Assembly (NCBI RefSeq): GCF_003334255.1
Contig: NZ_QOWU01000175.1
Strand: one strand, 5' to 3'
Origin: Escherichia coli
Lineage (GTDB): Bacteria; Pseudomonadota; Gammaproteobacteria; Enterobacterales; Enterobacteriaceae
DNA: 1,099 bases
Shown here: in pieces, positions 1 through 1,008 of the stretch
Position numbering within the stretch: position 1 is the stretch's first letter
Layout of the letters: each line of letters opens with the position of its first letter
Translations under genes and position numbers: made by a program
Notes under the pieces: generated by a model
Told to the model about the DNA's origin: nothing
Databases searched by the model: none
The model's input: only the letters and a program-made list of their open reading frames with translations

Positions 1-68
1 CCACCACTCATCACCAGAAGCCCGGCCAGAGAAGATGACAGGAGTGTCATTGTAAACTTTTTACTCAT
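1..68 (-). CDS. 5' end of a gene continuing beyond the window start; N-terminus resembles a signal peptide or membrane anchor (product unknown)
   Basis: ATG at 68..66 (minus) preceded by CAGGAT with an 8-nt spacer; translation [23 protein letters not shown] has a basic n-region (KK) followed by a hydrophobic stretch; codons are typical enterobacterial (CTG, GCC, GGG). Only 22 complete codons are visible, so the call is weak. Confidence 0.4.
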   Translation of the reverse strand, partial: [22 protein letters not shown]

Positions 69-76
69 TATGGATA

Positions 77-80
77 TCCT
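77..80 (-). promoter_or_regulatory. Shine-Dalgarno-like AGGA for the gene starting at 68
   Basis: Minus strand reads CAGGATATCCATA-ATG; AGGA at 80..77 lies 8 nt from the ATG at 68..66. Confidence 0.35.
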
Positions 81-103
81 GTTAAATTATCTGTATACAA
101 ATC

Positions 104-144
104 AGCCGTAACACACTCATAAAAAAGTCTGATTAATTACGGCT
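104..144. repeat. Perfect 8-bp inverted repeat AGCCGTAA (104-111) / TTACGGCT (137-144) with 25-bp spacer
   Basis: Read directly from the sequence; lies 36-76 bp upstream of the minus-strand ATG at 68. Function (operator or RNA stem) unknown. Confidence 0.5.
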
Positions 145-164
145 TTATTCAGGATATTCCGAAA

Positions 165-194
165 ATAAATTTAAAAATTAATTTTATAAATTTA
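165..194. repeat. 9-bp direct repeats ATAAATTTA (165-173 and 186-194) flanking a perfect 12-bp A/T palindrome AAAATTAATTTT (174-185)
   Basis: Read directly from the sequence; repeat spacing is 21 bp (about two helical turns) in a stretch that is almost pure A/T. Confidence 0.4.
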
Positions 195-258
195 GGATTT
201 GTCTTACATTATTCTGGGCATACCTGCTCACGCATACGACCACACCGCCGGAACAGAT

Positions 259-345
259 ATCAGAAAAAACTTACCCCAGTCAGACTTGCTGTTTCACATC
301 TGCTTACACTGTAATTTGTGAACAAAATTACAACATCAGAAAAAA
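259..345. repeat. Exact 11-bp direct repeat ATCAGAAAAAA at 259-269 and 335-345
   Basis: Read directly from the sequence; on the minus strand both copies read TTTTTTCTGAT, and the 335-345 copy follows the hairpin at 346-361. Confidence 0.4.
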
Positions 346-426: not shown

Positions 427-1008
427 TTATTCCTGTGCCCAGCCAACCCTGTATGCCAGTATCTCATCCGCACTGGTCAGCTTTTCCAGCTCTTTCTTCA
501 TGGTGCGCTGCCGGACGTGGATTTCCATCCCTTTGGTAAACATCGCCTGCTCTGCAGCAGCACTCAGAGCAATCAGTGTTTCAGCGTCCATCGGTACGTC
601 ATTATTGTCCGCATCCGTCCAGAAAAACTGCTCCGGCAGTTTCCCCGCTTTCGCTGCCGCCACCGACGGCTCAAGACGCGTCTGCGTTGACTTCCCGTAG
701 TCCCATTTACGCCCATTGTGCTCAAACGTGTAGTTCGCCGCTTCCATCGCATTACGCCAGGCGTTGATCCCGGCGGTTTTGAGTTCTCTGGCTTTTTCCG
801 GGCTGATGGATGGCTGTACATATTCTGCAATTTCACCGGCCTCTCCTCTCAGACAAGCGGCATAAATATCCCGCCCGTATGCTTCGGTATCGCTGGCTGT
901 TGCAGTGAAAGGAACCGCCTGCTCAATGTGCTCAAACTTCACCATGCAATTGACAGCAGTGTGCTCTTTATCTGCCCATTGCGGATTGCTTATTTTTTCC
1001 ACATTCAT
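427..1008 (-). CDS. Phage tail-associated protein, tail-fibre-assembly/chaperone-type (possibly DUF4376-like C-terminal region); 193 aa from the SD-supported start
   Basis: Only long ORF with protein-like composition (six-frame track 427..1083, stop TAA at 427-429). Minus strand reads ACAGGAG-ATG-AAC-ATG: AGGAG at 1015-1019, ATG at 1012-1014 (0-nt spacer) and ATG at 1006-1008 (6-nt spacer), so 1008 is the best-supported start, giving MNVEKISNPQWADKEH... A further in-frame ATG at 1081-1083 overlaps an upstream stop (TAATG) and is an alternative start. Family call rests on remembered similarity of the C-terminal stretch (FFWTDADNNDVPMDAETLIALSAAAEQAMF...EILAYRVGW) to small prophage tail-fibre-adjacent proteins; no search was run. 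Confidence 0.78.
   Translation of the reverse strand: MNVEKISNPQWADKEHTAVNCMVKFEHIEQAVPFTATASDTEAYGRDIYAACLRGEAGEIAEYVQPSISPEKARELKTAGINAWRNAMEAANYTFEHNGRKWDYGKSTQTRLEPSVAAAKAGKLPEQFFWTDADNNDVPMDAETLIALSAAAEQAMFTKGMEIHVRQRTMKKELEKLTSADEILAYRVGWAQE

Follow-up and report, generated by a model that had tools for sequence, protein, structure and literature searches.

The eib locus and its upstream region

The window, by which we mean the whole stretch of 1,099 nucleotides of Escherichia coli DNA analysed here, belongs to the end of a lambdoid prophage, for which the RefSeq context gives the gene order gpJ, lom, tail fibre, DUF4376 and YadA-like gene. The last of these, annotated as a 'YadA-like family protein' with its start at window position 68, begins within a segment (positions 40-340) that is 100% identical to the sequence upstream of eibC and eibE in the GenBank records P-EibC and P-EibE, and 97.7% identical to P-EibD. 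Because of its identity to the former two records, the downstream gene can be assigned to the eibC/eibE type (Table 1). Both the identity to deposited eib loci and the position of a YadA-like gene after prophage tail-fibre genes place it among the eib cassettes. The Eib proteins bind the Fc portions of IgG and IgA, with a reported contribution to serum resistance, and drive the chain-like adherence of LEE-negative Shiga-toxin-producing E. coli.

About 300 nt 5' of the ATG are kept together with eib-like genes whichever gene lies upstream, be it the DUF4376 gene, a giant gene with LPD38/LPD5 domains or an IS element. Since this segment is conserved behind differing upstream genes, the leader is part of the eib cassette. 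The upstream contexts observed are of at least three unrelated kinds, namely the DUF4376 tail-fibre-assembly gene, ~2,790-aa LPD38/LPD5-domain genes and IS66/IS21 elements (loci L002-L008 and L037), and, wherever the fetched stretch was long enough, the leader and adhesin gene are followed by a gene for a 157-aa hypothetical protein. Sequence comparison suggests a mobile 'moron' cassette with its left boundary near window position 375. This type of leader is found in ~1% of complete E. coli genomes, with up to 6 copies in each.

Table 1. Coordinates of the genes, structural elements and candidate regulatory sites in the window
Feature	Position	Strand	Remarks
5' end of eib, eibC/eibE-type immunoglobulin-binding trimeric autotransporter	1..68	-	ATG at 68..66; gene runs off the window
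P1 3' arm, CAGGAUAU	74..81	-	includes the Shine-Dalgarno sequence (SD); 89% of cells paired on the unfitted alignment A3
SD, AGGA	77..80	-	8 nt 5' of the ATG; GG core kept in all clades
-10-like hexamer GATAAT	86..91	-	no -35 in the window; T6 is A in clades D, E and G
P3, short hairpin AUUUG-UAUA-CAGAU	89..102	-	near-palindrome in DNA, TTTGTATACA(A/G)A; kept in six of seven clades
P2, long hairpin	104..144	-	lower stem AGCCGUAA (144..137)/UUACGGCU (111..104); upper stem 131-125/118-112; U-rich apical loop
P1 5' arm, AUAUCCUG (anti-SD)	150..157	-	preceded by conserved CGGA
P0, AT-rich hairpin (UAAAUUUA...UAAAUUUA; palindrome UAAAUUUAUAAAAUUAAUUUUUAAAUUUA)	166..194	-	'stem_loop' of GenBank AF151674-6
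Putative -10, TAATGT	206..211	-	~140 nt 5' of the ATG; read from the sequence, not called by the consensus scan
CRP-like site TGTAA-N6-TCACA	317..332	-	1 mismatch; 0.06 matches expected by chance
DUF4376 gene (tail-fibre-assembly-like, ORF-191)	427..1008	-	outside the eib cassette

Nested inverted repeats and the predicted fold

On the minus strand, which reads 5'-...CGGAAUAUCCUGAAUAAAGCCGUAAUUAAUCAGACUUUUUUAUGAGUGUGUUACGGCUGAUUUGUAUACAGAUAAUUUAACAGGAUAUCCAUAAUG-3', the repeat finder recovered two perfectly complementary 8-bp inverted repeats, the outer one joining AUAUCCUG (157..150) to CAGGAUAU (81..74) with 68 nt between the arms, and the inner one joining AGCCGUAA (144..137) to UUACGGCU (111..104) with 25 nt between them. 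Both lie exactly where a preliminary description of this DNA had placed them (74-81 with 150-157, and 104-111 with 137-144). The SD that it had located within the outer repeat is likewise read directly from the sequence, as AGGA at 80..77, separated by 8 nt from the ATG at 68..66, the RefSeq start.

Perfect 8-bp inverted repeats are frequent in sequence of this composition, at 1.5 per spacer in 2000 dinucleotide shuffles with the SD held fixed, and the earlier estimate of their chance rate was about right in this respect. The same estimate underrated how unlikely the arrangement is, given that among the 2000 shuffles an 8-bp repeat spanning the whole of AGGA arose in 1.9%, and such a repeat enclosing another of 8 bp in 0.1%. 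The repeats are real and lie beyond chance expectation.

The preliminary description had further proposed that the two repeats would fold the minus-strand RNA, and both stems are indeed present in the minimum free energy (MFE) and centroid structures, along with a third, small hairpin at 102..89. The predicted structure is a three-way junction in which the outer helix, P1, encloses P2 (144..104) and P3 (102..89). In the MFE structure P1 consists of UAUCCUG/CAGGAUA together with GGA (160..158) paired to UCC (74..72), with A157 bulged, amounting to ~10 bp, and the P2 hairpin has an energy of -14.5 kcal/mol. The minus-strand RNA from 175 to 55 (121 nt) folds at -30.4 kcal/mol against -17.3 +/- 3.3 kcal/mol for dinucleotide shuffles (z = -4.0; 0 of 200). 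The junction persists in a 422-nt fold that extends over the spacer into the first part of the eib coding sequence, and the antisense strand folds ~10 kcal/mol worse. As a separate observation, the minus strand in this clade only has an additional perfect 8-bp complementarity between AAGUCUGA (287..280) and UCAGACUU (132..125, the 5' arm of upper P2), a pairing that would compete with P2 only in transcripts begun upstream of 287.

Structural diversity of the leader

The leaders collected from E. coli genomes and viral contigs, comprising 30 unique sequences and the leader of locus L008, fall into seven clades, A to G, with identities down to ~70%; the window belongs to clade A and L008 to clade G. 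In clades E and G the adhesins that follow have unrelated signal peptides. Separate folding of the 30 unique leaders yields z-scores between -1.1 and -7.2, only one of which is not below -2.3. Later scans extended this set only slightly: viral contigs searched with a 15-nt loop pattern gave >120 matches, mostly random, with one true leader, and contributed one clade E variant, and metagenomes yielded only further clade C and D variants and one hybrid. In the hybrid (L166:1593-1734, from a metagenome contig) a clade D body is joined to a clade A initiation region (ACAGGAUAUCCAUAAUGAGU), and recombination inside the leader is therefore indicated. A scan of one genome per species with TTTGTATACANATNATTTNAYAGG found no homologue outside E. 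coli, its two matches, in Chitinophaga-type MAGs, being attributable to chance.

Clades A, B, F and E share the same three-way junction, with P1 around P2 and P3. In each of these clades P1 masks the SD, through AUAUCCUG / CAGGAUAU in clade A, through AUACCCU / AGGGUAU and AUGAAA / UUUCAU in clades B and F, where a U-A pair has become C-G, and through UCCUCAUG / CAUGAGGA in clade E, in which P2 is a perfect 16-bp helix. Clade G, whose sequence was read by eye rather than folded, would mask the SD with UCCUCAU / AUGAGGA and keeps P2, with P3 and the U-rich tract gone. In clade C the helix is formed by GCUCAUG / CAUGAGC and AAUUUCUU / AAGAAAUU and covers the start codon and codons 3-5, and in clade D AUCCUG / CAGGAU at a shifted site pairs weakly. 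Masking of the initiation region, which the earlier description had suggested for the SD, recurs at the SD in A, B, F, E and G and at the AUG in C.

Several clades also contain an upstream AUG (L009:1541-1672, L010:1415-1546, L038:648-779, L040:625-755, L008:1693-1822), which in clades B, C and F is situated within or beside the 5' arm of P1. In these three clades it opens a uORF of 25 codons that runs through P2 and P3 and ends with a UAG stop inside the main SD (AUAGGG). The uORF has 22 codons in clade E and 17 in clade G, its peptide sequences are poorly conserved, and in clade C the upstream AUG has AGGAG 7 nt 5' of it. Clades A and D have neither upstream AUG nor uORF, the window having CCUGAAUAAAG at the site of the (C/U)AUG found in B, C, E, F and G.

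No block of the leader is more conserved than TTTGTATACAAA (window 89-102). As DNA it forms a perfect palindrome of 12 bp in clades B, D, E and F, has one G-T position in A and C, and is gone in clade G (L008). Besides forming the P3 hairpin, this block might serve as an operator for a protein.

Covariation and conservation of the helices

Conservation of pairing was assessed on an unfitted MAFFT alignment, A3, of 15 sequences from clades A, B, F, E and G, and on a model-fitted alignment of 28 distinct sequences from all clades, which leans towards the model. All the sequences compared are related E. coli prophage copies, whose shared ancestry inflates the counts that follow. On A3, RNAalifold predicts P2 and P3 unaided, with five pairs changed on both sides, three in the lower P2 stem and two in the upper. 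With P1 added, 91.6% of the cells are paired, as against no more than 47.5% after sliding the partners by 1-3 columns, and the covariation score is 0.296 as against 0.188 +/- 0.015, a value reached in none of 500 shuffles, with six pairs changed on both sides. P1 itself has 89% of its cells paired on this alignment and one compensatory pair, the change from U-A to C-G in four sequences of clades B and F. The model-fitted alignment gives 84.8% pairing, compared with at most 49.3% after sliding. G-U and U-G combinations occupy 83 cells compared with 14 for A-C and C-A, an excess that favours a helix in the sense-strand RNA over a DNA palindrome or an antisense RNA, and the AU, GU and UG variants seen in P3 retain its pairing.

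P2 thus shows several compensatory changes, and P1, which is weak in clade D, one clean compensatory pair. The case for P1 is made mainly by two conserved motifs and one compensatory event. On all-clade alignments, both MAFFT and model-fitted, RNAalifold returned P3 only and recovered neither P1 nor P2, because the register of the helices varies from clade to clade; on this result, one column-wise consensus to cover P1 and P2 over all seven clades was rejected. What is conserved across the clades is the architecture rather than the register.

Putative start of the transcript and upstream elements

The only good -10-like hexamer near the ATG, GATAAT (91..86), had already been doubted in the preliminary description as the promoter of the gene, and the doubt is upheld by the lack of a -35 element in the window and by the loss of T6 in clades D, E and G; only clade C has a -35-like element in the arrangement TTGAGC-17-GATAAT. 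A promoter scan of the minus strand of the window called no promoter, and GATAAT was judged unlikely to be the promoter of this window on account of that result and of the poor conservation of T6. A start at this hexamer would leave both 5' arms out of the transcript.

The same description had placed the real promoter further upstream, and a hexamer ~140 nt 5' of the ATG, present in all seven clades as TAATGT, TATAGT, TACAGT, TACACT, TATTAT or TAGGGT, fits this proposal. Its T1, A2 and T6 are invariant (TAnnnT) and positions 3-5 vary, as a -10 element would be expected to do; no recognisable -35 element was found for TAATGT. If this hexamer is the -10 element, the putative start would lie near 199 and the leader would measure ~131 nt. 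Read-through from the co-oriented tail-fibre genes would also carry both stems.

The leader so delimited would probably begin with P0 as its 5'-terminal hairpin. P0 differs in sequence in other clades and again forms a hairpin (AAAUUCCGAA/UUCGGAAUUU in clade C and UUCCUAAAAAU/AUUUUUUAGGAA in clade E), and its base consists of conserved AUUCC and GGAAU. Further upstream, the CRP-like site is conserved in the aligned upstream regions, being perfect in clade C (TGTGACTAACTTCACA; TGTGA-N6-TCACA) and near-perfect in clades A and B. At ~125 nt 5' of the putative start it is too far away for a classical class I/II arrangement. In a preprint, an eibG deletion was complemented by the gene with 168 bp of upstream sequence on pGEM (bioRxiv 10.64898/2025.12.25.695649), an insert that just spans the leader element in a vector that also supplies promoters.

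Masking of the initiation region and conditional Eib expression

Eib protein expression is strongly conditional, depending on 37 °C, static culture, stationary phase and the IbrAB island. With or without agitation, growth at 23 °C brings EibG protein down to the detection limit, a temperature effect reported at the protein level only (PMC4352079, PMC5450701); between static and shaken growth the mRNA rises only 3.2-fold (PMC4352079), Eib proteins are reported to rise in stationary phase (PMC5450701), and the need for IbrAB is attributed to Sandt et al. 2002, as cited in PMC7649339. The literature searched describes no molecular mechanism for this conditional expression.

The helices described above exist and are thermodynamically exceptional; changes of the compensatory and G-U kinds have preserved them across diverged leaders, and in most clades the initiation region is masked by them. 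We lean towards the view that the repeats are two helices of a conserved ~130-nt 5' leader on the eib mRNA, which would hold translation low by pairing the SD. From the above observations we infer that the transcript starts upstream of 157 and that the masking limits translation. In such a leader P0 would come first and the three-way junction downstream of it, with P1 joining the UCCU segment (157..150) to the SD region (81..74), and P2 (144..104) and P3 (102..89) inside the junction would keep the P1 arms together. A closed P1 would bar the 30S subunit from the SD and keep adhesin translation low until the junction opens, for which higher temperature, translation of the uORF (in other clades, not in the window) or a trans-acting RNA or protein are candidates.

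The SD of clades A and B is predicted to be unpaired with a probability of ~0.1 at all temperatures from 23 to 42 °C, and the mean unpaired probability over the SD-containing stretch from -14 to -5 is likewise ~0.1. Opening the 30-nt initiation region of the window is predicted to cost 6.5 kcal/mol at 37 °C and 9.1 kcal/mol at 23 °C, a drop of ~2.6 kcal/mol, with the reservation that such values depend strongly on the flanks included (6.5 versus 11.2 kcal/mol for the window). In other leaders the cost is 6-15 kcal/mol at 37 °C and falls by 1-5 kcal/mol from 23 to 37 °C. Relative to controls in which only the upstream leader was shuffled, this cost stands out in clades A, B, C and E (z 2.0-4.0, 1/60 each), and is only slightly raised in clade G (z 0.65) and not raised in clade D (z -0.2).

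Alternative interpretations

These energies bear directly on the possibility that the leader is an RNA thermometer, with P1 shut at ambient temperature and open at 37 °C, which would account for the loss of Eib protein at 23 °C. In common with RNA thermometers the leader sequesters its SD by intramolecular pairing (81..74 with 157..150), the predicted cost of opening in the window is lower at 37 °C (6.5 kcal/mol) than at 23 °C (9.1 kcal/mol), and EibG protein is at the detection limit at 23 °C under any agitation, as observed at the protein level (PMC4352079, PMC5450701). Yet no melting in the physiological range is seen in silico: the SD, with an unpaired probability near 0.1 from 23 to 42 °C, is ~90% paired at 23, 30, 37 and 42 °C alike, and the thermosensor version of the preliminary description finds no backing in these predictions. 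Moreover, P1 is a perfect Watson-Crick UCCU/AGGA pairing under a stable junction rather than the weak, mismatch-rich helix of known thermometers, no Rfam thermometer family matches, and silencing of the AT-rich DNA by H-NS could produce the same phenotype without an RNA element. Horizontally acquired, AT-rich DNA is classically subject to H-NS silencing that depends on temperature. We regard a thermometer as rather unlikely; masking of translation is the best reading of these predictions, with the thermosensor as a candidate only.

A different role for P2 would be that of an intrinsic terminator or attenuator formed with the U-rich stretch, insulating eib from phage late transcription or acting through leader-peptide attenuation, in which case P1 would be incidental. 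U-rich sequences do follow P2 in clades D (UUUUUUUU), E (UUUGUUUGU) and F (UUAUUUGU), uORFs cross P2 in clades B, C, E, F and G, and an approximate d'Aubenton-Carafa score is positive only in D (+8) and borderline in E (-0.5). In the window, however, the tail is GAUUUGUA, with 4 U among 8 positions and neither of the first two a U, and it scores approximately -63; strongly negative scores are obtained for clades B, C and G as well, and a terminator scan of the window and of clades C, D and E made no call at P2. Clade G, which is devoid of the U-tract, nevertheless retains P1 and P2, the hairpin of 41-59 nt with internal loops is unlike typical terminators, and the window's clade has no upstream AUG from which a leader peptide could be read. 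The scan found no terminator on the minus strand of the window, and the candidacy of P2 as one was set aside as unlikely. Termination is improbable as an explanation of the repeats, and more plausible for clades D and E than for the window's clade. Similarly improbable is a structure that is real but serves the stability or processing of the mRNA, by protecting it from RNase E or as a substrate of RNase III, rather than its translation. The 5'-proximal P0 and the long hairpins found in all clades, and the perfect 16-bp P2 of clade E, would be in keeping with such a role, but it leaves unexplained why the closing helix is always at the SD or the AUG, even in clade C, where it has been re-registered.

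Finally, the repeats might act in the DNA, as protein-binding palindromes or promoter architecture; an operator at TTTGTATACAAA would be one example, and IbrAB, H-NS or CRP sites would be others. The near invariance of TTTGTATACAAA and its perfect 12-bp palindrome in clades B, D, E and F would be expected of an operator, the region has only 26% G+C, a CRP-like site lies upstream, and eib expression needs the IbrAB island according to the citation of Sandt et al. 2002 in PMC7649339. The arms of P1 and P2, separated by 68 and 25 bp, are however unsuited to dimeric operators, the G-U pairs that have been retained (83 versus 14 cells) are mismatches in DNA and on the other strand, and the sequence of P2 differs wholly between clades with its pairing kept. 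As an account of the repeats we hold this very improbable; an operator fits P3 only, where it could coexist with the RNA model.

Relationship to known systems and significance

Because leaders that mask the SD are well known, the eib leader is not surprising in kind. A search of Rfam with the whole window at E <= 10 gave only chance-level matches, the best being STnc540 (E 0.71) and Mu-gpT-DE (E 0.78), with none on the leader, and no paper on the eib untranslated region or on an eib RNA thermometer was found in the literature searched. The leader resembles the Listeria prfA thermosensor and Yersinia lcrF in being a 5' UTR of at least ~100 nt on a virulence-associated gene whose fold pairs the SD, and in a product that is found at 37 °C and missing at ambient temperature (for Eib, PMC4352079). 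It differs from both in having no similarity of sequence or Rfam model, and in its three-way junction, whose UCCU/AGGA pairing is perfect and is not predicted to melt from 23 to 42 °C. An anti-SD segment that pairs AGGA is shared with the FourU and ROSE elements. The eib anti-SD is, however, UCCU rather than the UUUU of FourU (RF01795), no U(U/C)GCU with a bulged G stands opposite the eib SD as in ROSE (RF00435), neither family matched at E <= 10, and the eib helix stands at the base of a multi-branch junction, not in a short terminal hairpin.

The mRNA leader of rpoS contains an inhibitory stem that is opened by the Hfq-dependent small RNAs DsrA, RprA and ArcZ. By analogy, the eib leader may be likened to it in its length, in the occlusion of the ribosome-binding site by an upstream arm and in the rise in stationary phase (for Eib, PMC5450701), but the two are unrelated in sequence. 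The GenBank 'stem_loop' annotated 5' of eibC, eibD and eibE (AF151674-6, Sandt & Hill) concerns the same region and genes; it corresponds to P0 at 166..194 and is distinct from the SD-masking P1 and the nested P2.

More broadly, and only tentatively, the eib leader may represent an undescribed family of cis-acting translational switches on prophage 'moron' cassettes for trimeric autotransporter adhesins. In such a family the junction would mask the initiation region through a helix that has been repeatedly re-registered (to the SD in A, B, E, F and G, and to the AUG in C), in some clades coupled to a leader ORF that stops inside the main SD, and would provide the post-transcriptional layer behind the expression of Eib at 37 °C, in static culture and in stationary phase. 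A conserved SD-masking leader offers a concrete target with specific bases to mutate, and would explain why the ~300-nt upstream region moves with the eib gene. Promoter-swapped or upstream-trimmed eib constructs would be expected to alter regulation.

Two further observations were made at these loci. In L008 (E. coli strain 48) RefSeq begins the YadA-like CDS at 2153, 341 nt downstream of an in-frame ATG at 1812, which follows a typical eib-type leader and opens a signal peptide (MGNRLLRRAVSVAISGTLLGLGVGVSA), so the annotated start looks truncated. In the window, the plus strand at 394-411 carries a hairpin, GGGAAAGAAATGTTTCCC, followed by CCATATTTTT, with a terminator-like score and no evident plus-strand gene; read on the minus strand, this hairpin lies directly 3' of the DUF4376 stop codon and has no U-tract.
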